63,934 nucleotides of DNA from positions 1 to 63,934 of the IMG/VR virus record IMGVR_UViG_3300019360_000003. One strand, written 5' to 3'. The position numbers and the translations under genes are program-made. This stretch comes from a virus (Duplodnaviria; Caudoviricetes). Within the stretch, counting starts at the first letter, position 1. Each line of letters starts with the position of its first letter. The notes beneath the pieces are model-generated. The model searched no databases. It was not told the origin of the DNA and worked only from the letters and a program-made list of their open reading frames with translations. Shown one piece after another: positions 190 through 63,716 of the stretch.

Positions 190-1525
190 CTCGGGCTCTC
201 GACGTCGAGAAGGCCGAAGAGGACGCGCTCCGTGTAGCGGCTACGGGGCGGCGGAGCGGGCGGAAGAAATAATTTTGCGCTCGCCCGTCTCCACTCCGTC
301 CGCTCGCTCAGTCGCTCGCAGGACTTTGCTGCCGAGGGTGGCGGCTCGTTCACGGCCCTATCCAGGGCGCGCTCTCTCGCAGGCGGCGCAAATACGCGCT
401 CAACCTTGAGGCGCTGAGCCCGCATGACCGCCAGAAGATCGCGGACGCCTTGTGGGCGATCGTGCTGGAGCTCGCGGGAGAGCAATTGCTCACCCCTGCG
501 GAGCTGGAGATCTTGAAGCGTGAGGGGGCAAGCGCTCTCTCATCTTGCGGTTAATTGGTGAGGTGGAGAGCGCCCCGGCCTGGAATCTGATCGAATCACC
601 GGCAAGGCGTAGCTGGCGACGTCGGGGCGCGGCGCACAGATAGAGAAAATCACGTCGCGCTCCGATTTGTCCCACGACGAACCAGGCGCGCAGGGGCCTG
701 GAGGAGCCGGCTGGAGAGCGGCTCCGAACTGCGGGGATGCGGGATCGAGCGATCCCGATAGGCTGGGAGCGCGGCAAAGAGTCCCGATGCCGCTCAGGCT
801 GGCGATTCTTCGGCGCGTATAAGACGATCAGAGCGCTTGGCTTGGAGCGCGGCGTGTCTCGGGTTTTTGACATTTGAGTTTTGACATTGCCAGCGTGGGT
901 CGCTGGCGATCCGGGCGCAGGGTATTTCCGTATGGGGCGGGACTGCGCCCGGTTGGTGAGGGTCGGAATTTGTAGAGAGATTCCGGCTTCCAGGGCGCGT
1001 GGGACGAACGCTCGTCCCGTGCGCTCTGGCCTTCGCTGCGGTCGGCAACGACGACCGCAGAGCCTGTCTGCGGGGACAGGCTGTAGCTGCCCGGACGCGG
1101 CGCTCTGGCTGAGGACGTGTTGATTGGCGCCGCGTCCGGGGTTTTTGAAAATTCTGCAATTCTTCGAACTCCGCAACCCTATGGCGTCTCGTAGGGGATC
1201 GGTCGCAATGATCCTCGGAGCGTTCCATCGCGAACGACGAGGGGAGTGATAGCGATGTAGCGCAAGTGGGAGGCAGAGACGCGAAGCGGAGTCGCATGCC
1301 GTGATCCCGTACACGGGATCGAGGTTGCGAGGGCGCCGATGATTCACTGGACAAGGACCGGCCGACAGAGATCGGCTGCCTCACACCCGCCAAGAACCGC
1401 AATGGGCCCCCTCACCCACAGAGGGTTGCGCGATCTGGACAGGTGGTGACGCGAGGCGCGCAGCCTCTCGCAACTGAAATTAAGGAGAGTACCGGCATCT
1501 GATTTTGCGGGCGCGAGCCTGCCTA
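190..1525 (+). ncRNA. Candidate large structured RNA or leader: array of tandem hairpins
   Basis: At least 13 stems, e.g. 621-634/653-666, 886-895/901-910, 911-920/943-952, 990-1007/1012-1029, 1036-1044/1052-1060, 1061-1068/1075-1082, 1090-1103/1127-1140. Non-Watson-Crick pairs are G-T on the + strand. No convincing ORF. Confidence 0.55.
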
Positions 1526-1535
1526 GGAGGGCTTT

Positions 1536-1751
1536 ATGTTGGTGATCTTTCTTTTCGTGTTTTTTTTCTCGCTGATCATCGCGCTTGGAATGCTGGGGGT
1601 GAGCTTGATGATTGACGATTGGCCTGAATCAAGATCTGCGGCGATACCGCAGCCGCAGCCAGGAGGCTCCACGCCTCCGCCCGCTGGCGCCGTTTCGGGG
1701 CAAAAAGGCGCGGCGCCAAACAAGACCGGGGACGTTTCCAGAACCGCATGA
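1536..1751 (+). CDS. Small membrane protein (1 N-terminal TM)
   Basis: AGGAGG RBS; hydrophobic N-terminus. The 3' half overlaps further hairpins. Confidence 0.5.
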   Translation: MLVIFLFVFFFSLIIALGMLGVSLMIDDWPESRSAAIPQPQPGGSTPPPAGAVSGQKGAAPNKTGDVSRTA

Positions 1752-2020
1752 CCGCTTGCGTCCCCGGTCAATTTCCCGCCACGGCTTTGGGGCGGTTGGC
1801 CGCGGCGGACTGGTTGAAGCGCGCCGCCGAAGGAAAGAGTGAAATGGAGAAAGAGAAAATCGAAAAGCTCCAGGCCGTGATCAGCGGCGCGATCGTGAGC
1901 GCCGTGAATCTCGCCGCCGGGGAGGGAGTGGGGCAGGCCCTATTGGCCGCCACGCAGATCAAGCTCAGGCCTCGCAGGCCGGCGTCGAAAGCTCAGGCGC
2001 CGAAGCCGGCCAAGGCCTAA
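1748..2020 (+). CDS. Hypothetical protein (start may be the internal ATG of MEKEK)
   Basis: ATGA overlap with the upstream ORF; protein-like central part. Confidence 0.4.
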   Translation: MTACVPGQFPATALGRLAAADWLKRAAEGKSEMEKEKIEKLQAVISGAIVSAVNLAAGEGVGQALLAATQIKLRPRRPASKAQAPKPAKA

Positions 2021-2148
2021 CAAGCTTCGCGCGCGTCGCGACGCTCTTTCATAACGATCAAACGCTGAAGTCTACGAGCGTGCGATTCTTCGTTTGGACT
2101 GGCAGGGGCCAGTAGGCGGCGCGCGTGAAATAACTATAGAGGGAGATA

Positions 2149-2817
2149 GTGATGACCGAACAAGATGGAATTGATTTGATTAGCGTGCTCGGTGAGATCA
2201 GGCAATCGCTCGCATTGATCGCTGGCGCAATGGCCTCGGCTCCGGACATTCGGGAGCCGATTCAGAATTACTCGACCTTTGATTGGTCGTCTATCGGAGC
2301 CGAGGTATTGCGGAACGACCAGGACGGGCCGAGCGTCGTCCGTTGGAACGGCAAGATCTTCAAGCGCCGCTCCCCTTCGAATAAATTCGCGCCATCGATC
2401 TGGTTCTCGCGCTGTGTCGGGAAAGCGGAGGATGGCGCGAATTTATACGAGACGCTGATCTCCTTCGACATAATCTCGGACGACGTAGAGCCGGTCAATC
2501 CGAAGGCGCGCGCGCTGGCGTTCGCGAACGCCACGAAGAGCGACGGCCTCAACGATCTAAGGCCAAACCTGGAGGCGCTCGCCGAACGCTTATACAGGGA
2601 GGGGCGCGTCACGAAGACCGGGGCGAGCTACTCCGTCAAACCGAATGGCCCGGTGACCTACTCCGTCACGAGAGGCGCTTCCGGCAATGCCATCTGCAAT
2701 TGCGAGCGATACGAGGCGGGATCGGCTTCCGACCCGAAATTCCGTTGTGAGCACGTGCTTGCAGTGAAACTCTTCGCCGCGCAAGCTGAGAGGGAAGCAA
2801 GCCGGAAGGCGGCGTAA
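2149..2817 (+). CDS. DdrB-like ssDNA-binding/annealing protein fused to a SWIM zinc finger
   Basis: FDWSSIGA...KIFKRR...PSIWFSR...DG..YETL..F resembles Deinococcus DdrB motifs as recalled; C-terminal CNC-x(14)-CEH is SWIM-like. Confidence 0.65.
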   Translation: MMTEQDGIDLISVLGEIRQSLALIAGAMASAPDIREPIQNYSTFDWSSIGAEVLRNDQDGPSVVRWNGKIFKRRSPSNKFAPSIWFSRCVGKAEDGANLYETLISFDIISDDVEPVNPKARALAFANATKSDGLNDLRPNLEALAERLYREGRVTKTGASYSVKPNGPVTYSVTRGASGNAICNCERYEAGSASDPKFRCEHVLAVKLFAAQAEREASRKAA

Positions 2818-2944
2818 TCGGCTTTCCGCGGTGAGATTGGGCGCTTGGTAGCCGCGGAACGCACGAAGCGCTTTTGGAACCTATCTAACGAGATGGGAGC
2901 GAGGGAGGAATCGCTCGCTCCCACTGTATCCTCACGAGGTAACC

Positions 2945-3487
2945 ATGCCGCAAGAATACGCGCCGGCGCCTGACGTCGAAGAGGTCGCTCGCGACCTCAT
3001 AGATTCTTATCACTCTCACCTGGCGAGCGTCAGGATTGATTTCGTTTTCGTGAGCGAGTCCCTGAAGGAGAAGGGAAAGCTTGTATGGGGCCGCGCCAAA
3101 AAGGTTGGCGGCCTCAACGCTTGGCTGGCGTCGGAGACCAGAAGGCCGGACGCTATACAGCCACAAGAATTCTTTGTGGTTGAGATCGACCGCAAGGTGT
3201 GGGGGCAACTCGACGACAAATGCAGGAGGGCGCTCGTAGATCACGAGCTGACGCATCTGGACGTCGATATAGACACAAGCAAGCTCTCGATCCGCCCGCA
3301 CGATCTCGAAGAATTTAATTCAATCGTCCGCCGCTACGGCCTTTGGCGCGACGATGTCCAGTTGTTCATCGAGGCCGCCAAAGACGAGCGGAAACTGTTT
3401 GAGACCAGGATCGAGCGAATCATCGAGCGAATCAACGAGGGGGCGCTGGGGCCTGAAGTGTCGGCCTCACGCGTGAGCGCCGGATGA
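2945..3487 (+). CDS. Putative phage metallopeptidase
   Basis: ALVDHELTH (HExxH) and PHDLEEFxxIVRRYG motifs. Confidence 0.8.
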   Translation: MPQEYAPAPDVEEVARDLIDSYHSHLASVRIDFVFVSESLKEKGKLVWGRAKKVGGLNAWLASETRRPDAIQPQEFFVVEIDRKVWGQLDDKCRRALVDHELTHLDVDIDTSKLSIRPHDLEEFNSIVRRYGLWRDDVQLFIEAAKDERKLFETRIERIIERINEGALGPEVSASRVSAG

Positions 3488-3537
3488 TCAACTCAAACCC
3501 CAATACAGGAGTTTGAATCTAGCTAAGCAGGACATCC

Positions 3538-5105: not shown

Positions 5106-6299
5106 TTGTCCAACAAAGTCAGCGGTAAAGTCTGGGAATTGGATTTGGATCCCATTGACAAGCTAGTGCTCTTAGCGCTGGCCGATCACGCGGATCATGA
5201 GGGGAACAACGTGCGACCAGGGAACGATCTGATGTGCGCAAAAACCGGTCTGAGCGAGCGCACAATCGGCAAGAAGATCGAGAAATTCATTCAACTTGGG
5301 ATCCTCATCCCTGTGCGTTTAAGCGCCGGGCCGGGCAAGTTCCGGGAGTTTTCTCTCGTGGCTGACCACCTCCCCCGCCACGAACTCTTCATCAAGAGAG
5401 ACCTGAAAAAGGTCGAACCGCGTTCGACTGTTCACAAACAAACAGTCGAACGCGGTTCGACTGTTAAGGGTCCGAAGTCGCCTAAATCGCGCTCGACAAC
5501 TCGACAAAGAACAGTCGAACCTGGTTCGACTGTTCCGTCGAACCCCATTCGACCGTTCACAGAGAAACAGTCGAACCTGGCGCAACCAACGGTCGAACCT
5601 GGCGCGCTAACGGTCGAACCTGGCGCCGATTCGCATGATAAGGAACGCGCGCGCGTTCTGAACCGTCATGAACCGTCATGTGAACCGTCAGAAGAAGAAG
5701 CCGCTCCTCCTCCCTTCGACAACTTCGCCGATCCTCTCTCCGAACTCGCATCCGCTATCGCGACTGTAATGGGTCTTCCCGCCGCGCCGGAAGGCGATGC
5801 CGCGGCGCCGATCAACGAAGCGGCGTCCGAGTTCCTGGCGGCCGGCTTGACCCCATCGGCTGTCTCCGAGTTCGAGGAGGATTTTTACCGCCGCAAAAAC
5901 CAACAGGGCAAAAAGTACGTCCTCACGCTCAAGATCCTCCGCGAGGATCTGCCTGGCTGGTCACGCGCCAATCGTATGCGACAGGTCGCCTCTCGCGCCG
6001 GCGCGAATGGCGCCGCGAAAGAAACCCAGAGCCTCGACCCGCAACCCCCTCGACCCAGAGTCGGCCAATGGGGCCAAGCGCTCACCCTGCTCGACACCCT
6101 GATCGGCTCTGACGCTGTCGCCGCATGGTTCGCGCCGCTCGAATTCCTCGGCGTCGAAGACGCTCAGGTTCGGTTGCGGTGCCCCGACGCCGTCTTCCGC
6201 GACTGGATCGAACGGAATTATTCAGCGCAGCTCGCCGACGCGCTGCGCGAGGTTGGACTGGGAGGCCGCGCGGTTTTCGAGATTGGAGGCTTATCGTGA
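5106..6299 (+). CDS. Phage replication initiator (N-terminal HTH, C-terminal DnaA N-terminal-like domain)
   Basis: KLVLLALADHAD...KTGLSERT HTH; internal DNA repeats; C-terminal WFAPL...VRLRCPDAVFRDWIERNY resembles DnaA domain I. Confidence 0.85.
   Translation: MSNKVSGKVWELDLDPIDKLVLLALADHADHEGNNVRPGNDLMCAKTGLSERTIGKKIEKFIQLGILIPVRLSAGPGKFREFSLVADHLPRHELFIKRDLKKVEPRSTVHKQTVERGSTVKGPKSPKSRSTTRQRTVEPGSTVPSNPIRPFTEKQSNLAQPTVEPGALTVEPGADSHDKERARVLNRHEPSCEPSEEEAAPPPFDNFADPLSELASAIATVMGLPAAPEGDAAAPINEAASEFLAAGLTPSAVSEFEEDFYRRKNQQGKKYVLTLKILREDLPGWSRANRMRQVASRAGANGAAKETQSLDPQPPRPRVGQWGQALTLLDTLIGSDAVAAWFAPLEFLGVEDAQVRLRCPDAVFRDWIERNYSAQLADALREVGLGGRAVFEIGGLS
5410..5626. repeat. Iteron-like repeats, probable replication origin
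   Basis: About 7 copies of GTCGAAC, four as palindromes or near-palindromes (e.g. ACAGTCGAACgcgGTTCGACTGT), inside the initiator gene as in lambda O. Confidence 0.75.
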
Positions 6300-7068: not shown

Positions 7069-7990
7069 ATTGATCGAAGCGACCCAACCCGAAGTCGTCG
7101 GTCAGCACGCGCTCTTCGATTACGCGCAGCTCGACCACGACACGCAGATTGCGATCCGGATCAAGACCAGCGAGATCAAATCGCTGGCCAAGCGGATGGC
7201 GGGCGACGTGGTGGAGATCGGCGGGAAGTTGGCCGAGGTGAAGGATCATCTGGGCGGCAACGGCCGCTTCAATGACTGGCTGTCGGCGGAGCTGGGCTGG
7301 AGCGAGCGCACGGCGTACAACTTCATTGCTGTTTGGCAGAAGTTCGGCGCCGCAAATTTTGCGCTGGAGAACGTGGCTACGTCGGCCCTGTATTTACTCG
7401 CCGCGCCGTCTACGCCGGCGGAGGCTGTGGAGTCGGCCAAGCGGATCGCTGAGGAGGGCGGGGAGGTCACGCACGCCGTGGCGAAGGCTATAGTCGAGGA
7501 GGCGAAGCAGGCGCGGCGCGCCAATACCAGGCCGGAGCTCTTCGCGGTGGAAGACGAGGAGCGCGAAGCCGATCAGGAGTCCGCTGAAGCCGCGCCTGCG
7601 GAGCCCGCCGAGGCGTCCAGCGCTGAGAGGCCGCGGGATGCGACGGACAAGACGAACACCAAAGAGATCGAAGCCGCCTGGCGCAAGCATGGCGTCATGG
7701 TCACGATCCAGCTCCTGCCAGCCAAGCACACCGAGCGCCAAGCGATGGTCACGGTTCGCGCCGGCGACCTGGAGCCGCTGAGCAAGGTGAAGCCCGAATC
7801 GGAAGTCATCTTCGTGGGCGCATTGCTTGAGCTGATCGAGCAGTACAAGCGCGAGCTGCCGGCGAAGATAGCAAATCGCAAGCCGGCGCCGAAGACCCCT
7901 GCGAAGTCTTCAGCGAAGCCCGCGCCCAAGGCCGCGGGTAAACAAGCCCCCAAGTCGGCTAAACAAAAACCCGCGAAAGCGCGCAAATAA
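7061..7990 (+). CDS. DUF3102-domain protein with a PRTRC protein E-like C-terminus
   Basis: EIGGKLAEVK...FNDWL..ELGWSERTAYNFI...SALYLLAAPSTP is typical of DUF3102; C-terminal domain plus Lys/Ala/Pro tail. Confidence 0.7.
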   Translation: MNELIEATQPEVVGQHALFDYAQLDHDTQIAIRIKTSEIKSLAKRMAGDVVEIGGKLAEVKDHLGGNGRFNDWLSAELGWSERTAYNFIAVWQKFGAANFALENVATSALYLLAAPSTPAEAVESAKRIAEEGGEVTHAVAKAIVEEAKQARRANTRPELFAVEDEEREADQESAEAAPAEPAEASSAERPRDATDKTNTKEIEAAWRKHGVMVTIQLLPAKHTERQAMVTVRAGDLEPLSKVKPESEVIFVGALLELIEQYKRELPAKIANRKPAPKTPAKSSAKPAPKAAGKQAPKSAKQKPAKARK

Positions 7991-9129: not shown

Positions 9130-9932
9130 CTCGAAAGAAAGCCAAAAAATCGAAGAAGCCCTCCCCTCGCGCCAGCGCCCAGGACGCCGTTCTGCATCTG
9201 CGCCTCATCCAGTACGGGGCGCATATCGTCGAGCTTTACGAGAAGTTTTTCCCCAAGGAGTTCGACGGGATTGATTACAGCTCCTTCGAGGCGCTGCTCG
9301 CGTCGTACGACCGCTTCGCGCTGCTCGTCAACGACAATCTGTTTCCGGTCCACGCGTTCAGCTCGAACGATCTGATGTATGAAGAGCCTGATCACAACCT
9401 CCACACGATGGAGATCTGTTTTCACGGCTTCAGCTCTTTCGTCTGGTTCGACCGCATGAACCACGGCGAGGAGGTATCGGTGGTCGAGAGGATGCTTGTC
9501 TCCGCGGCCGGCTATCACGATTTCCCGATGGTCAAACTCGGGCCGCCTAAAGACCACAGGTTTAGCAGTGAGAAGCTCCAGGAGGTCTCCTGGAAGCAGA
9601 AGGGAATGATCTCGCGCCTGTGGCTCGCGGCGATGGCCGTGCTCGGCGGCACGGGCAACGTATGGCTCGATCTGTCCGAGGAGGAATACTACGCGTCGGA
9701 GCCGCCAGAGTGGAACGAGGCTCAGATCATGTGGCTCGCCAGCGAGTTCAAGGAGGCTCAGAGAGTCTCCGATCAGGTCAACGAGTTCCTCGTCTGGGCC
9801 GACTCGAAGGAGAAACTCGAGCGGATCGAGCGGCTACTCCGCCGGGCGCAGGTTCCGGATAAGCCTATCCGCATGAAGGTCCGGGATCTTCCCGAGGTCC
9901 CACTCGTCGAAGCGTTGGGAGGCGTTTTGTGA
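9126..9932 (+). CDS. Hypothetical protein in the position of PRTRC protein F
   Basis: Directly upstream of and coupled to the E2-D gene; identity inferred from position only. Confidence 0.5.
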   Translation: MTRKKAKKSKKPSPRASAQDAVLHLRLIQYGAHIVELYEKFFPKEFDGIDYSSFEALLASYDRFALLVNDNLFPVHAFSSNDLMYEEPDHNLHTMEICFHGFSSFVWFDRMNHGEEVSVVERMLVSAAGYHDFPMVKLGPPKDHRFSSEKLQEVSWKQKGMISRLWLAAMAVLGGTGNVWLDLSEEEYYASEPPEWNEAQIMWLASEFKEAQRVSDQVNEFLVWADSKEKLERIERLLRRAQVPDKPIRMKVRDLPEVPLVEALGGVL

Positions 9933-10618
9933 GTAAACGGGTCTCCAAAAATCTGATCCCCGTGGGTGTGAACCCCCAGGCGGCGATCTACCTGGTCAAC
10001 GACCAATTTCTCCTCGTCGCCAATCGCGACGGCAAGGTCGAGCAGAAGTACGTCAGCCCCGGCGCGGTCCGGAGCGCCTTCGCCGCCGAGCCGGTCGACA
10101 CGGGCTGGATCCCCGAGGGCGTGCGCCGCTGGGGCGTCGGCGCGAAGGGCGTGTACATGCTGCGATGGCATGCGCCGGCGGTGTATTCGGTCTGGCTGCC
10201 GGAGCGCAAGCGCCAGGCGCGCGTCCCGATGCCGGCGCTCGTGTTCTTCGCGCAAGCGAAGGCCTATTACATTTGGGCGATGAGGGGCGACAAGTTCGAC
10301 CCGAAGGGACTGCTCTTCAACGCGCCGTGCGCCAATGTCAACAACCTCGGGCTGATTTGCTGGGGGTCGAATCCGCACCTCGACGTCGCTGAAGGCGGCG
10401 CCTTCGACCGGATGTGGAGCCTCTTTTGGGAGGCGCCGTTTTCCGGCGACCACGAGGCCGGCGCGAACGCGCGCATGGCGGAGCTCGCGCGGAAGAAGGT
10501 CGAGCGGTTTCCGGAGGCCGAATTGACGCCGCTTTCGCATCGGCTCGTGACAGGGCCTTGCACGCTGGAGGCCGTCGTGGAGCGATTTACGAGGAGAGGA
10601 GAAGATCAATGGGGTTAG
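9929..10618 (+). CDS. Prokaryotic E2 family D (PRTRC protein B)
   Basis: VPMPALVF...LFNAPCANV...GLICWG, with the conserved Cys. Confidence 0.85.
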   Translation: MSKRVSKNLIPVGVNPQAAIYLVNDQFLLVANRDGKVEQKYVSPGAVRSAFAAEPVDTGWIPEGVRRWGVGAKGVYMLRWHAPAVYSVWLPERKRQARVPMPALVFFAQAKAYYIWAMRGDKFDPKGLLFNAPCANVNNLGLICWGSNPHLDVAEGGAFDRMWSLFWEAPFSGDHEAGANARMAELARKKVERFPEAELTPLSHRLVTGPCTLEAVVERFTRRGEDQWG

Positions 10619-12444: not shown

Positions 12445-12858
12445 ATGGACATCGAACTGGCGAAAGAGATCACGGCTAAATGCGTCGAGACCTCACTCTC
12501 GCTCACATTGCATGACCGCTACCAGCCTCTGCCAGACATTGAGCTGGCCGACCTGGTCGAAGCGAACCGACTCGTCGCGGAGATGGAGCCTGAGCGGCAG
12601 GCCGACGGTTCCAGGAATCATTACATCCACGTCGACCCGCGTGGGATCGCGCTCCACTACGCGTTCAAGCATTTCGGCCTGTCACCGAATCAAATGCTTG
12701 AGGCGCTGGGGTTCGGCTTTGACGAGGACTGGATCGAGTTCTGCGCTGGCTGCTGGAAGTTCACGCGCAAGGACCTGGTGCGGTTCATGAACGGCCATCT
12801 CTATTGCGAGGATTGCCGGAACTTGCTTAAGGAGCAGGAGAATGCCGAAACCCATTGA
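12445..12858 (+). CDS. Hypothetical protein with a C-terminal Zn finger
   Basis: AAGGAGG RBS; CxxC...CxxC. Confidence 0.7.
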   Translation: MDIELAKEITAKCVETSLSLTLHDRYQPLPDIELADLVEANRLVAEMEPERQADGSRNHYIHVDPRGIALHYAFKHFGLSPNQMLEALGFGFDEDWIEFCAGCWKFTRKDLVRFMNGHLYCEDCRNLLKEQENAETH

Positions 12859-13693
12859 CCTCTCCTACGCCCGGGCCGCGCAACTGTTGCTGCCCGCCTA
12901 CGACCGCCTGCGCCTGATCCTCGTCGGCTGCGGCGGGACCGGGAGCTGGCTCGCGCCGTCGGTCGCGCGGATCGCCAGGCTCCAGCGCGAGCAGGGCAGG
13001 CCTGTTGAGTTACTGTTTTACGATCACGACCACGTCGAGCCCAAGAATATCCCCCGGCAAAATTTCTGCGACGCCGAACTTGGCCGTAACAAGGCCGTCG
13101 CGTTGGCCGCGCGCTTCTCCGCGGCGTGGGGCGTGGAGATCGCGGCGGTTCCGCGAAAATTCCGGGCCGCGTCGTTCGATTGGCCGCAGGCCGGAACCCT
13201 CACGATCCTGATCGGTTGTGTGGATAACGCCGCGGCGCGCGGCGAGATGGCGAGCGTGGTCAAAACGCAAAGGTTCGACCTGCTGCCGGCCTGGTGGCTC
13301 GACTGCGGCAACGAAGAATCCTCCGGCCAGGTGATAGTCGGCTCGACCATTCAGCCGAAGGATCTCGCCGGCTCGTTTACGCCGTCTTGCAAAATTTGCA
13401 AAGCGCTCCCCGCGCCCTCGCTGGTCGCGCCGGATCTGCTGGTCGCGAAGCCGGAGGAGTTGGAAGACTCGAAGGTGTCCTGCGCCGAGATGCAGGTACT
13501 CAACGCCCAGAGCCTGGCCGTGAACCAGACGGTCGCCGCCATCGCGACGGATTACCTACTGGGGCTCCTCGGCGGGAAGTTGCGAAAATTCGCAACTTAT
13601 TTCGACCTGGCGAGCGGGTCGATGAGGTCGAAGTATATAACCCCCGAGGAGATCACCGGCGCGATCAGGCGGCCGCCGGCGTATTTGATCTAG
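12842..13693 (+). CDS. ThiF/E1-like activating enzyme (PRTRC ThiF family)
   Basis: LVGCGGTGS, RQNF, GRNKA, GCVDN, WLDCGN and SCAE motifs. Confidence 0.92.
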   Translation: MPKPIDLSYARAAQLLLPAYDRLRLILVGCGGTGSWLAPSVARIARLQREQGRPVELLFYDHDHVEPKNIPRQNFCDAELGRNKAVALAARFSAAWGVEIAAVPRKFRAASFDWPQAGTLTILIGCVDNAAARGEMASVVKTQRFDLLPAWWLDCGNEESSGQVIVGSTIQPKDLAGSFTPSCKICKALPAPSLVAPDLLVAKPEELEDSKVSCAEMQVLNAQSLAVNQTVAAIATDYLLGLLGGKLRKFATYFDLASGSMRSKYITPEEITGAIRRPPAYLI

Positions 13694-25631: not shown

Positions 25632-25677
25632 GAGCGCCGCGCTGAGGATTTTGATAATCCTCAGCGCGGCGCTTTTT
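25632..25677 (+). terminator. Long perfect hairpin with T-run just before the prohead protease start
   Basis: AGCGCCGCGCTGAGGATT-ttgat-AATCCTCAGCGCGGCGCT-TTTT. Confidence 0.75.
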
Positions 25678-25684
25678 GAATTTT

Positions 25685-26788
25685 ATGGCCAACATCATCC
25701 GAAAAGCCTTCCCCGCCGCCACGCTGGCGATGGACGACGAGAAAGGCACCATCGAAGCCATCGTCAGCGTGACCGGCAACAAGGACCGCGGCGGCGAACG
25801 CGTGATGCCGGGCTTCTTCGCAAAGAGCCTGCAGAAGAAACTCCCGCGCGGCGTCTGGTGTCACGACTGGAGCATGCCGATCGCGAAGACGCTCGTCGCG
25901 GAGGAGTGGGCCGCCGGCGACGGCCGGCTCCCCGAAGGACTGCGCCAGTACGGCGGCTATTACATCAAGGGCCAGTTCAACTTGGAGACCCAGCGCGGCC
26001 GGGAGGCTTATAGCGACCTCAAGTTCGGGACCATTGACGAGTTCTCGATCGGCTATTTGATCGAGAAGGACAAGTGGAACGCGGAGGCCAAGACGAAAGA
26101 CTTGATCGAGGGTGAGTGGTTCGAGTGGTCCCCGGTCCTCGTCGGGATGAATCCGGAGACGGCGCTACTGTCGGTCAAAGGCCTCGATCAGGCCGAGGCG
26201 AAGGGCCAATACCTCGGCGATTACATCGAGGCCTCGATGACGCTCGGCGCGTGCTACCGAGCGATGGACGCGTTTTACTGGGTCCTCATCGACCAGCTCT
26301 ACGACGACGATAAGAGTCACTCCGAGAGGATGGCCGCGACCGCCGGCGCGCTCGGCGAGCTCACGGCCCTGATCCTCAAAGTCGTCGACGCCATTATGAG
26401 CGGGAAGGCGGAAGAATCGCCTGAGATGGCCATTAAGACCGTCCAGGCTCTCTCGCTCAACCCTCAAGACTTCACCGTAGCCCTGCGTGCAGGGCTAACC
26501 CTCGCAAGACACTCCGAAAAGGCGCTTACCGCCGTGAAAGAGTGGCAAACACGCATCGAGAATGTCCATCACCTGCGGGTCAAGGAAGGGCGAGTCCTTT
26601 CATCAGCCAACCGCGCCACAATCAAACAGACGGCCGACGATCTTTCGGCTTGTGCGGTTCGGCTGCTGGAACTCTATGACGCGACCGATCCGGAGGCGAA
26701 GGGCAAGGACGCGGAGGAGTCACAGCGACTCTTCGCGGAATTTTTCTATCTCGACGCTCAACTGAGCGCGTTAGGAGTGTACCGATGA
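25685..26788 (+). CDS. HK97-type prohead protease with a C-terminal extension
   Basis: GN.DRGGE.VMPG.F, WCHDWSMPI, FSIGY, EWSPVLVGMNP. Confidence 0.9.
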   Translation: MANIIRKAFPAATLAMDDEKGTIEAIVSVTGNKDRGGERVMPGFFAKSLQKKLPRGVWCHDWSMPIAKTLVAEEWAAGDGRLPEGLRQYGGYYIKGQFNLETQRGREAYSDLKFGTIDEFSIGYLIEKDKWNAEAKTKDLIEGEWFEWSPVLVGMNPETALLSVKGLDQAEAKGQYLGDYIEASMTLGACYRAMDAFYWVLIDQLYDDDKSHSERMAATAGALGELTALILKVVDAIMSGKAEESPEMAIKTVQALSLNPQDFTVALRAGLTLARHSEKALTAVKEWQTRIENVHHLRVKEGRVLSSANRATIKQTADDLSACAVRLLELYDATDPEAKGKDAEESQRLFAEFFYLDAQLSALGVYR

Positions 26789-60325: not shown

Positions 60326-61552
60326 TTATTTACAATTGGTCTTATTTTTATTGGCCAATTTTTGGCCATTCCCGTTTAACCTGGCCGCCTCCACGGCCTC
60401 GATCGCTACGACTGCTCGAGCCGCGGATTCTGGCGTCACGTGGCTATAATGCAACACGAGCTCCCGGTCAGTATGGCCCGTGATGTCGCCGACCGTTCGA
60501 AGGTCCAGTCCGCTCTGTAAGAGCTTGGTCGTGAAGGTGTGGCGCGCGCAGTAGAGCACGAACCCTTCGGCCGAGTCCCGCCCGTACTCGATCCCGACCG
60601 CCTCGGCCGCCTCGCGCAAGATCCGGTAATGCTTCGGCGTGGGATTGCCGCCGCGGCTGAAGATATAGTCACGCTTTGTCGCGAATTCGCGCTGCTCCTC
60701 GACGCTCTCGATGAGTGGCGCTGTCAGGGGTACATATCGAGTCGAGGGCGTCTTCGTCTCCGTCTTGGTCCCACGCACCCGGATCCGCCTATTGTCGTAA
60801 TCCACGTCCGCCCATTTCAGAAGAAAAATCTCTTTCGGCCGCATCCCTGAGTTCATCGCGAAGCGCAGGACCGCCGCGACCCGGAGCCTCGCCCGCCTGG
60901 CGTTCGCCTTGTCCTGGACTCGCGTCCCGTCGCGCTCGTCGGCCGGGCGGCTCAAGTGATCGAGCAGGCGGCGGTATTCGTCGTCGCTGATGATTCGCTC
61001 GCGCCGGCTCTTGCTCACTTTGGGGCGCGGGATCTTCGGCGGGCGCCACTGCGCGAGCTCCGGGAAGAACTCAGCGACTGAGTTAAGCGCGGCGGCGATG
61101 ATATTGAGTTCGCGATTGATCGACGCCGCCGCTTGGCCGTCAGCCTGGCGGCGCTCGACGTAGAGGCGGATGAGCGGCGTCGTGATCTCGTCTATCTTGA
61201 TTCCCGCCGGCAGGAGATCGAGCCAGACTCGGAAGACTCTGGTCGCGCGCGTCCGCTCCGCGCGGAGCTCGATGCCTGGCGTCCGGAGATCGATGAGCTC
61301 TTTCAGCGCCGGGCGCTTGATCGGCGCGGCCAAGCCGAATTTCGCCTCGCGCTCGGAGCGCCGGAGCGCGGCGAGCGCCTCTTCGGCCTCCTTCCGGCTC
61401 TCGAATTGATAGATACGCATTCGCCGCTTGCCGCCCCTGCCATCCGAGACGCGGACGTCGAAGCCCCAGCGCTTCTTTTTGGCTTTTTTGGAATAGCTCT
61501 GCCCGATCGGGCCTTCGCGGCGCCTGGCTTTCTTTTCTCGATGCTTGAGCAT
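60326..61552 (-). CDS. int: Tyrosine integrase
   Basis: N-terminal arm-binding-like strands; INREL; SGMRPKE, YCARH, GH...HY. Confidence 0.92.
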   Translation of the reverse strand: MLKHREKKARRREGPIGQSYSKKAKKKRWGFDVRVSDGRGGKRRMRIYQFESRKEAEEALAALRRSEREAKFGLAAPIKRPALKELIDLRTPGIELRAERTRATRVFRVWLDLLPAGIKIDEITTPLIRLYVERRQADGQAAASINRELNIIAAALNSVAEFFPELAQWRPPKIPRPKVSKSRRERIISDDEYRRLLDHLSRPADERDGTRVQDKANARRARLRVAAVLRFAMNSGMRPKEIFLLKWADVDYDNRRIRVRGTKTETKTPSTRYVPLTAPLIESVEEQREFATKRDYIFSRGGNPTPKHYRILREAAEAVGIEYGRDSAEGFVLYCARHTFTTKLLQSGLDLRTVGDITGHTDRELVLHYSHVTPESAARAVVAIEAVEAARLNGNGQKLANKNKTNCK

Positions 61553-62361: not shown

Positions 62362-62700
62362 CTATGCGCGTTTTTTATGTGATTTGGGGCGTCTCGGACG
62401 TCTTTGTGGGGTATGAGCGTCGTCCGGCACGAGTTCTATCATTTCACCCGCCCGCATCCTTCTAACGATCTCGTCGTGTAAATTCGGAGACGGCCCAGGC
62501 TCAGAGCCAGGCGAAAGAAGGCGCCTTCGAAGCTCTGGCGTGATCAATCCTGTATCCTCAAGTCCTATCAACTCTCGTATAACATCGGCTTCTTTCAAAT
62601 AATGATGTTTCTTCATCAGATCGGCGGCAAGTTCCTTAATCCTATTAATCTCTTCTTCGCTTGCGCGAACGCTCAGCATTTTGTTGCGTTTAGTTTTCAT
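62362..62700 (-). CDS. Ribbon-helix-helix regulator (candidate repressor)
   Basis: KMLSVRASEEE..RIKELA...EADVIRELI. Confidence 0.7.
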   Translation of the reverse strand: MKTKRNKMLSVRASEEEINRIKELAADLMKKHHYLKEADVIRELIGLEDTGLITPELRRRLLSPGSEPGPSPNLHDEIVRRMRAGEMIELVPDDAHTPQRRPRRPKSHKKRA

Positions 62701-62726
62701 ATAGCAATTAGAATTGCCTGTCAGAC

Positions 62727-62755
62727 AGTGTATTACGCGCTCATTAACTGATCAA
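62727..62755 (-). promoter_or_regulatory. Leftward promoter
   Basis: TTGATC-17 bp-TACACT. Confidence 0.55.
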
Positions 62756-62767
62756 GAAAATAAATGC

Positions 62768-62797
62768 TTGACGGCGTATGACGGCGCAGTACATAAT
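62768..62797 (+). promoter_or_regulatory. Rightward early promoter, probably giving a leaderless mRNA
   Basis: TTGACG-18 bp-CATAAT with ATG 6 nt downstream; tandem TGACGGCG repeats within it. Confidence 0.6.
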
Positions 62798-62803
62798 CTA
62801 ACT

Positions 62804-63016
62804 ATGGGCGATCAGAAACCAAAGGTCATGAAGGCATGGCGCCTGCATCCGGATGTCGTGGAGGCGATCAAGCGGGGAGCTGAAAAGCACGGCTACCCGG
62901 ACGAAACCTCTTTCGTGGAGACGATTTTCAGAAGAGTGTTGGGGCTTCCCGAAACTCAAAAACCGACACCCCAGCCGCCTCAAATAAGCAATGAGGCGAT
63001 GGACCTACGGGTCTGA
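62804..63016 (+). CDS. Ribbon-helix-helix regulator (Arc/CopG-like)
   Basis: KVMKAWRLHPDVVEAIKRGA...ETSFVETIFRRVL. Confidence 0.7.
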   Translation: MGDQKPKVMKAWRLHPDVVEAIKRGAEKHGYPDETSFVETIFRRVLGLPETQKPTPQPPQISNEAMDLRV

Positions 63017-63133: not shown

Positions 63134-63268
63134 ATGACCAGATCAACGAAATGCCAACTCTGCGGCCGCCAGGCGATGGCCGCCGGCGAACAAGATCAAG
63201 TCAATCTATTTCTGGAGGCCGCGCGCCGGGCGAAAGCCCTGGCCGAGGCTGAAGCGATCGCGGCATGA
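63134..63268 (+). CDS. 44-aa hypothetical protein
   Basis: ATGA coupling with the next gene; CxxC. Confidence 0.4.
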   Translation: MTRSTKCQLCGRQAMAAGEQDQVNLFLEAARRAKALAEAEAIAA

Positions 63269-63606
63269 AGAGCGAAACTCTACAACCGGATATTGAGTGG
63301 ATCGGCCACCGCGAGGCCGCGGCGATAATGCGCGTCAACGAGCGCAACCTTCGCCAGCGTGGCCCCGACGGTCTGTTCCTTTTCTACCCGGACATCGCCC
63401 GCTGGCAGCCCGGCGGGCCGAGGACACGGCTTTTCGTGAGCAAGGCAGATGTCGTTCGCTGGATCGAACGATCACAGGCCGAAGCTCGGGATCTCCTGCC
63501 CCGCGAGACACAGATAGAGATGGGCGCTTATTACGCGAGCGCCCTGCCGACGCTGCGCAGGCTCGGCGCTGACCGCGTGATCAAGGCGCTAGGGGTGAAA
63601 GCTTGA
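63265..63606 (+). CDS. Excisionase-like HTH protein
   Basis: WIGHREAAAIMRV..RNLR...RLFV.KADVVRWIE. Confidence 0.7.
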   Translation: MKSETLQPDIEWIGHREAAAIMRVNERNLRQRGPDGLFLFYPDIARWQPGGPRTRLFVSKADVVRWIERSQAEARDLLPRETQIEMGAYYASALPTLRRLGADRVIKALGVKA

Positions 63607-63716
63607 GCGGGCAAGCGCCCGCTCATTGCGGGCGGCGGGAATCTCGGAAGGACGCTCGCCGCTCGCCCCTTCGGGTAACTCCGAAGTAGGCGAGTAACGA
63701 AAGGAAGAGACTATTC

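Follow-up and report, generated by a model that had tools for sequence, protein, structure and literature searches.

A seven-hairpin array of about 300 nt as a candidate RNA control element in the early operon of a temperate phage

Introduction

What an untranslated gap containing strong hairpins contributes to a rightward early operon, with regulatory genes upstream and recombination and replication genes downstream, is the question raised by positions 190-1535 of the IMG/VR virus record IMGVR_UViG_3300019360_000003. The window analyzed was the entire record (63,934 bp), which is a complete temperate phage; its first and last 123 bp are identical, so that the start coordinate of the record is arbitrary. 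A first-pass annotation had read 190-1525 as one non-coding RNA of ~1.3 kb tiled with hairpins and had proposed an antitermination platform, a sponge or decoy, or a precursor of small RNAs. Comparison with related loci instead identified a mosaic in which the proposed functional unit is a ~300-nt module (849-1147), not 1.3 kb, carrying seven contiguous hairpins at 886-1140, and in which most of 190-848 and 1147-1535 consists of spacer and of debris from recombination. The module is most likely an unclassified multi-hairpin RNA element of a phage early operon and a variant of a known transcription-control architecture, with a modest chance that it is a new RNA-based antitermination or decoy element.

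Structure of the hairpin array

The seven stems at 886-1140, reported in the first-pass annotation with gaps of 0-7 nt, were confirmed both by the sequence itself and by z scores against dinucleotide-shuffled controls. The array is real, and its successive gaps measure 0, 7, 0, 6, 0, and 7 nt. Its hairpins are as follows:

886-910, + strand: H1, a 10-bp stem with loop UGGGU and one G·U pair
911-952, + strand: H2, an outer stem of 10 bp and an inner stem of 6 bp (two G·U pairs) with loop AUGGG, joined to H1 without spacer
960-989, + strand: H3, a 12-bp stem with four G·U pairs
990-1029, + strand: H4, an 18-bp stem with three G·U pairs and loop ACGC, abutting H3
1036-1060, + strand: H5, a 9-bp stem with a 7-nt loop in which the close relative L007 differs at 1051
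1061-1082, + strand: H6, a 9-bp stem with loop GCGG, abutting H5, in whose loop L007 differs at 1073
1090-1147, + strand: H7, a G+C-rich 15-bp stem (1090-1140) with a 4-bp inner stem, followed by G-UUUUU-G

Four pieces of this core gave fold z scores of -5.2 (886-952), -6.7 (956-1032), -5.3 (1033-1086), and -3.9 (1085-1150), and for each of them none of 200 shuffles folded as well. Over 775-1150, the + strand reached -203.1 kcal/mol with a z score of -6.28, and the 200-nt windows starting at 901 and 951 were the two most extreme + strand windows genome-wide once G+C content had been regressed out. The hairpins H1-H7 comprise 93 pairs (15 of them G·U), and the five uninterrupted stems account for 58 pairs, including nine G·U pairs and no A·C position.

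A single-stranded + strand molecule had been claimed from the wobble pairs, and this claim stood in part. Three G·T pairs could be read directly from the sequence in each of two stems, the 14-bp one at 621 and the 18-bp one at 990, A·C positions were lacking, and the absolute energy was stronger on the + strand, as the - strand of 775-1150 folded at -156.7 kcal/mol (46 kcal/mol weaker). On the - strand, H3 keeps only 6 bp since its G·U pairs become A·C mismatches, and H4 splits into three pieces. Measured against its own shuffles, however, the - strand was as non-random as the + strand (z -6.73), because the + strand is G- and T-rich; the grounds for preferring the + strand are therefore the G·U pairs and the absolute energy. 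In either case, the array has the + strand as its sense strand, in common with all neighboring genes.

The array ends in a terminator-like manner. Following the H7 stem and a G, a T5 run occupies 1142-1146, giving the combination of a G+C-rich stem with at least five U residues, and the energy of the hairpin upstream ranked fourth among the 107 runs of five or more T in the genome. H7 is the best terminator candidate of the early region, despite its long loop. The loading of Rho has a base-composition preference, and the composition of the + strand at 849-1150 (117 G, 77 C, 70 T, and 38 A) is poor for it.

Membership in known RNA classes was tested for the whole window. No family among the 4227 models of Rfam 15 was matched at the gathering thresholds; at E<=5, positions 1-2200 gave six weak matches far below threshold, none of them in 849-1150, and L007 1-2500 gave none. 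The earlier failure to recognize a transfer RNA (tRNA), transfer-messenger RNA (tmRNA), or repeat array held, with no tRNA or tmRNA gene called in the window by ARAGORN. In a search for a repeat array or clustered regularly interspaced short palindromic repeats, only two-copy direct repeats of 9-20 nt were found, and the stems are mutually unrelated in sequence. Sponges of the CsrB/RsmZ type carry a GGA motif in most hairpin loops and have a multi-hairpin body ending in a terminator. The array resembles them in its chain of hairpins with short or no linkers and its terminator-like end, and differs in the absence of an Rfam match and in having GGA in only one of seven loops, on which ground a sponge of this type was rejected. 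No loop motif was common to H1-H7 except for GGG in three of the seven loops.

Mosaic composition of the gap

The extent of the element was delimited by comparison with L007, a 5-kb metagenome contig of a very close relative whose DdrB-like protein is 97% identical. Positions 849-1339 were 99.4% identical to L007 (three differences in 491 nt) and 1332-3505 were 96.2% identical. For 190-848 no match was present in L007, which carries there a Cys-rich open reading frame (ORF) and an XRE-type helix-turn-helix (HTH) gene instead. Two of the core differences lie in loops (1051 and 1073), and the third, at 1136, replaces G-C pairing by G·U. Further contigs came from X1, the one public DNA run with the sequence; they carry the L007-like form and may share the population of L007, so are not independent of it. 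Three forms meet different DNA at 849 and so have a junction there, namely the window, L007, and a third X1 contig. Features on the left side of the module are:

730-809, + strand: leader remnant, in which 730-766 and 771-799 match 6193-6229 and 6267-6295 of the related prophage L002
810-849, + strand: remnant of the 3' end of an excisionase/HTH-like gene, in which 810-844 is collinear with L002 6602-6637 (last codons)
849-868, + strand: left edge of the module shared with L007, with a possible 3' hairpin arm GCGGCGTGTCTCGGG and then T5 (tentative hairpin T1)
865-888, + strand: TTTTGACATT in two exact copies with a spacing of 14 nt, each containing TTGACA

An X1 contig holds 38 extra nt at 770 and a gene body of ~288 nt between 809 and 810; from this and the collinearity with L002, 730-849 is therefore the gutted copy of a leader and a gene end. 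The relatives are also separated by indels at 770, 809/810, 1339/1340, 1450, and 1609. The 5' arm of T1 differs between the window and L007, and GCGGCGTGTCTCGGG can pair with a different upstream partner in each.

Low divergence extends rightward from the module, as substitutions relative to X1 and L007 numbered three in 1316 nt at 849-2164 (plus indels) vs. 13 in 556 nt at 2165-2720 in the DdrB-like gene, or ~10 times rarer on the left. This could be due to a recent exchange of the left part or to constraint. Between positions corresponding to 1339 and 1340, L007 carries a 107-nt insertion (L007 1481-1594) with a tRNA-like fold that includes an acceptor stem of 7 bp and the canonical T-loop GGUUCGAUUCC. 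It was rejected as a tRNA, given its overlong middle part, the lack of an ARAGORN call, and an Rfam tRNA-Sec score of 14.5 bits (E 2.3).

Within the remainder of the gap, the claim that stems tile all of 190-1525 was upheld for 886-1140 and for a second cluster at 611-760 on the + strand, where five adjacent hairpins gave a z score of -4.17 with none of 200 shuffles as good. The minimum free energy structure of this cluster includes all four of the stems annotated there (621-666, 682-701, 703-725, and 740-757), and from 730 onward the cluster shares homology with the cro-excisionase leader of L002. The tiling failed elsewhere, with folding near chance at 190-330 (z -1.6), 331-470 (z -0.8), 471-610 (z -2.0), and the spacer 1147-1535 (z -1.0), in which 1378-1410 is conserved with L002 7312-7340. 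A hairpin with a GNRA loop that had been placed at 1507-1522 was absent from the minimum free energy structure, and its surroundings (1440-1535) scored z 0.05. The fold-energy comparison with shuffles that had been suggested for both strands thus favored the core and 611-760 and none of the other pieces. The single ~1.3-kb RNA was not borne out, considering that L007 shares the stretch only from 849, that gene remnants occupy 730-849, that 516-550 is a duplicate with 83% identity to 63599-63631 (the end of the excisionase-like gene of the phage and the hairpin after it), and that 1147-1535 folds at chance level and differs by indels between relatives. The original observation holds for ~450 of 1336 bases, and for the ~300-nt core an antitermination platform is still a viable reading.

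That the stretch has no credible gene was corroborated. None of its nine ORFs matched Pfam at E<=0.1, one of the nine matched PHROGs weakly (E 0.052), and no periodicity of third-codon-position G+C content was detected in 550-1450. The frame 339-554 on the + strand has coding-like GC periodicity and no ATG or GTG before TTG450; for 273-551 and 339-551, neither a word search of 5.8 billion proteins nor phmmer against 1.84 billion returned a homologue, and neither Pfam nor PHROGs gave a match. It is probably a dead gene end. A protein-coding gene in the stretch was rejected as no frame combined a start codon, periodicity, and homologues.

Hairpin arrays in related loci

A search with the DdrB-like protein alone as query gave no related locus, and an alignment-based search gave 0 loci in IMG/VR, five in genomes, and six in metagenomes. 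In the corresponding gap ahead of the DdrB module, two of the distant relatives carry hairpin arrays whose sequences are unrelated: L004 at 1170-1480 (z -6.77), after an HTH gene homologous to that of L007, and L002 at 7073-7420 (z -4.78), after a small Zn-finger-like ORF. These arrays are the rank-1 + strand windows of their own loci, of 139 and 261 windows, respectively. Two hairpins are shared by L002 and the further locus L011; all 28 of their predicted pairs are intact, each of the three one-sided changes leads to G·U, one pair is compensatory, and the loops differ. The arrays are hence fixed in position and free in sequence.

Covariance models of H1-H4 and H5-H7 were searched against the window and against 11 loci. 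Outside the window, the highest-scoring match, obtained with the H1-H4 model, was L004 1248-1459 on the + strand (19.3 bits, rough E 0.052), which points to a comparable architecture but does not establish homology. When window 1030-1240 was aligned with the arrays of L002 and L011, no credible homology emerged. The core had no match in INPHARED phages (blastn, distant mode), only chance-level matches of 21-43 nt in 401 genomes of the class to which the host genome of L002 belongs (E 8e-4 to 1e-2 per genome), and nothing below E 0.13 in the two metagenome-assembled genomes (MAGs) that contain L002 and L004. Exact patterns of H7 and H4 had 0 matches each in IMG/VR, where the H7 pattern would miss L007 as well owing to its C>T difference.

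Early operon and proposed role

All genes flanking the hairpin gap are on the + strand. The early region and its surroundings comprise:

60326-61552, - strand: integrase
62362-62700, - strand: repressor-like gene
62768-62797, + strand: PR-like promoter matching 10 of 12 sigma-70-like consensus positions
62714-63016, + strand: cro-like gene
63265-63606, + strand: excisionase/HTH-like gene (phrog_66)
63717 to 169, + strand: small ORF spanning the terminal repeat
1536-1751, + strand: gene of a small hydrophobic peptide, the first downstream of the gap, with only its ~30 first codons matched in L002 (7423-7516)
from 1844, + strand: small ORF with a conserved start, downstream of 1536-1751
2149-2817, + strand: DdrB-like single-stranded DNA (ssDNA)-binding protein
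2945-3487, + strand: phage metallopeptidase
5106-6299, + strand: replication initiator with HTH_36 and DnaA_N domains

A consensus scan of 1-2500 found no sigma-70-like promoter on the + strand. A role in the nascent early transcript was proposed because the hairpins are fixed in position and free in sequence, are biased to the sense strand, end in a terminator-like structure, and are followed by no recognizable promoter before the next genes. The favored, and still tentative, assignment is a cis-acting RNA punctuation element that would serve as a terminator, as a 3' end, or in read-through control. Counted in favor of this assignment were the genome-wide fold rank, the + strand pairing, H7, the lack of a downstream promoter, the positional analogues, the conservation of pairs between L002 and L011, the discrete module, and the Rho-poor composition.

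The module 849-1147 would be transcribed with the rightward early operon, and the nascent + strand RNA would fold into seven consecutive stable hairpins, of which H7 with its U-run may act as an intrinsic terminator. The array would then end and stabilize the immediate-early transcript (cro-like gene, excisionase-like gene, and small ORF) and could gate the entry of polymerase into the DdrB-like, metallopeptidase, and replication genes. If so gated, the downstream genes would need read-through, antitermination, or an activated promoter. As a possible side benefit, the G-rich RNA, being tightly folded, may protect the long untranslated gap from Rho and exonucleases.

Related architectures are known. 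The lambdoid nutR or putR sites with tR1 lie in the rightward early operon, after cro-type genes and before replication genes, and gate the delayed-early genes; the array lies at a comparable operon position and would likewise be structured nascent RNA beside a terminator gating delayed-early genes. The put element consists of two stem-loops of ~70 nt in total, close to the early promoter. In contrast, the array has seven hairpins over ~260 nt at ~1.9 kb from the PR-like promoter at 62768. HK022 put RNA reportedly makes polymerase resistant to terminators without a protein (PMC9378689). The antiterminator RNA conAn2 of conjugative plasmids is untranslated, measures 260-600 nt with 30-40% identity between relatives, and acts in cis on terminators; it occurs in conjugation operons of Gram-positive plasmids, is paired with the ConAn1 protein encoded just upstream, and depends on a 16-bp GC-rich box and a weak stem-loop of -10 kcal/mol (PMC8191782). 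The array is similar as a poorly conserved, untranslated intergenic stretch of a few hundred nt in a long operon of a mobile element, and differs in its very strong stems, its location on a phage rather than a plasmid, and its probably acidobacterial host. Relative to intrinsic terminators and terminator clusters of mobile elements (PMC8955417 and PMC11658703), the likeness lies in the G+C-rich stem and U-run of H7 on the sense strand and in the insulator-like position between gene modules; differences are the absence of a U-run from six of the seven hairpins and the unusual length of the H7 loop.

A more far-reaching version, considered quite unlikely, is a new class of cis-acting RNA in Blastocatellia-associated temperate phages, in which a ~300-nt array of very stable hairpins, constant in position and variable in sequence, before the recombination and replication genes would work as a put- or conAn2-like processive antiterminator (protein-independent or protein-assisted), or would titrate a host RNA-binding or defense factor at the onset of lytic growth. 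Read-through control into the replication genes, if true, would extend the few known RNA-based transcription control elements of mobile elements (put, EAR, and conAn2) by an example from a phylum that has received little study, and such elements would be recognizable by position and fold and not by sequence. If the array is only a terminator and stabilizer amid gene debris, the architecture is ordinary for a phage, and long gene-free gaps in mosaic phages are composites that should be dissected before being called large RNAs.

Alternative explanations

Several observations weigh against a punctuation element. The H7 loop measures 21-23 nt (with a 4-bp inner stem), beyond the 3-8 nt of a short terminator loop, and H7 was not called by a simple consensus terminator scan. 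U-runs are lacking after H1-H6, which are thus not terminators, and also after every stem of the L002 and L011 arrays. In the more distant L010 and L003, the most structured window is not at this position. Only one homologue of the core is available, the nearly identical L007, and its differences would be structure-neutral by chance in ~1 of 7 cases by rough estimate. The G·U excess could reflect C-to-T mutation bias on the non-template strand and not selection. At the left edge, T1 folded no better than shuffles (z -0.45 and -0.66) and is for this reason kept as tentative. No antiterminator gene was recognized among the 30 window proteins scanned in Pfam, and among the listed runs holding the sequence there was no RNA run and one DNA run (X1). 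Termination alone also leaves the purpose of H1-H6 unexplained, which gives room to three rival readings.

One such reading is a stand-alone small RNA gene, or "RNA moron," in which a promoter near 865-888 would drive a multi-hairpin RNA of ~260 nt ending at H7 that acts in trans as a regulator or as a sponge or decoy for an RNA-binding or defense protein of host or phage. The sharp left boundary at 849 and the occurrence of the module in two contexts (the window and L007) are consistent with it, as are a possible terminator-like hairpin with T5 upstream, two TTGACA motifs before H1, and the terminator-like end; a multi-hairpin body closed by a terminator is the build of protein-sponge small RNAs, and the tRNA-like element of L007, 190 nt downstream, suggests that RNA genes can occupy the gap. 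No -10 box lies at 16-18 nt from either TTGACA of 865-888, and the TTGACA repeat is of a simple heptamer type and not a recognized promoter; T1 is without statistical support. The 20-mer TTGACATTTGAGTTTTGACA spanning the TTTTGACATT copies had 49 exact matches, all in AT-rich heptamer repeats from unrelated phyla, and this recurrence in unrelated AT-rich genomes is therefore evidence of neither homology nor a promoter. Also counted against this reading were GGA in only one of seven loops, unlike in CsrB or RsmZ, and no shared loop motif but GGG in three; a stand-alone small RNA was judged somewhat unlikely. A gap without dedicated function was judged unlikely: here it would be decaying recombination DNA, with hairpins left over from terminators and leaders that are harmless or shield the untranslated RNA from Rho and RNases. 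Such decay would fit the remnants at 730-849, the duplicate at 516-550 of 63599-63631, the start-less frame 339-554, the indels between relatives, and the failure to find the core in the 401 genomes, in INPHARED, or in two exact-pattern IMG/VR scans. Yet seven stems of perfect to wobble pairing without mismatches are unlike a decay product, no other + strand stretch of the genome folds better than the core, equivalent arrays of unrelated sequence occupy the gap in L002 and L004, and the hairpins of L002 and L011 keep 28 of 28 pairs despite changes in their loops.

The hairpins could also act as ssDNA, forming a priming or loading site in replication or recombination beside the DdrB-like gene. 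Inverted repeats can fold in both strands, each strand here outscores its own shuffles, and the DdrB-like gene lies 1 kb downstream; the strand-specific wobbles and the U/T-run after the last stem, by contrast, fit RNA better, and iterons or repeated boxes were absent. The replication origin is probably a perfect inverted repeat of 22 bp (~5350-5410) that lies within the initiator gene 5106-6299, an arrangement also known from lambda. Because the probable origin lies there, an ssDNA function of the array was considered very improbable. The punctuation element remained the tentatively preferred assignment for the module.

Additional features of the phage genome

The related prophage L002 adjoins a tRNA-Leu gene within a Blastocatellia MAG. 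This placement suggests an acidobacterial host for the phage.

The window 5300-5500, which includes the 22-bp inverted repeat, is the most extreme - strand fold of the genome and among the top folds on the + strand. The first peptide downstream of the gap (1536-1751) is very hydrophobic and is similar in size and composition to type I toxins or small membrane proteins, and a 7-nt insertion of L007 after 1609 shifts its frame. Between this gene and the ORF starting at 1844, the untranslated block 1758-1821 (within 1752-1843) has 83% identity to L002 7653-7716 and also matches L011 782-829; it is straddled by an 11-bp perfect inverted repeat (1724-1734 and 1759-1769). A 24-nt pattern from the conserved block at 1772 had seven genome matches; L002 itself accounted for one, and the remaining six were simple hairpins without relation to it.

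The 49 loci matching TTGACATTTGAGTTTTGACA (L027-L075) are genome contigs, many of them from Patescibacteria (candidate phyla radiation), in which TTTGAGT and TTTGACA heptamers often face their own reverse complement. This TTTGAGT/TTTGACA heptamer is a widespread AT-rich intergenic repeat.

Further into the genome, a Prok-E2_D protein (E 6e-22) is encoded at 9929-10618, and a ThiF-type E1 (E 1e-12) with an adjoining protein that has weak RING/zinc-finger matches at 12445-12858 and 12842-13693; together these resemble a ubiquitin-like conjugation set carried by the phage. At 25640-25677, a perfect 17-bp hairpin followed by T5 forms the strongest terminator-like site in the genome, immediately ahead of the structural-region gene 25676-26788.

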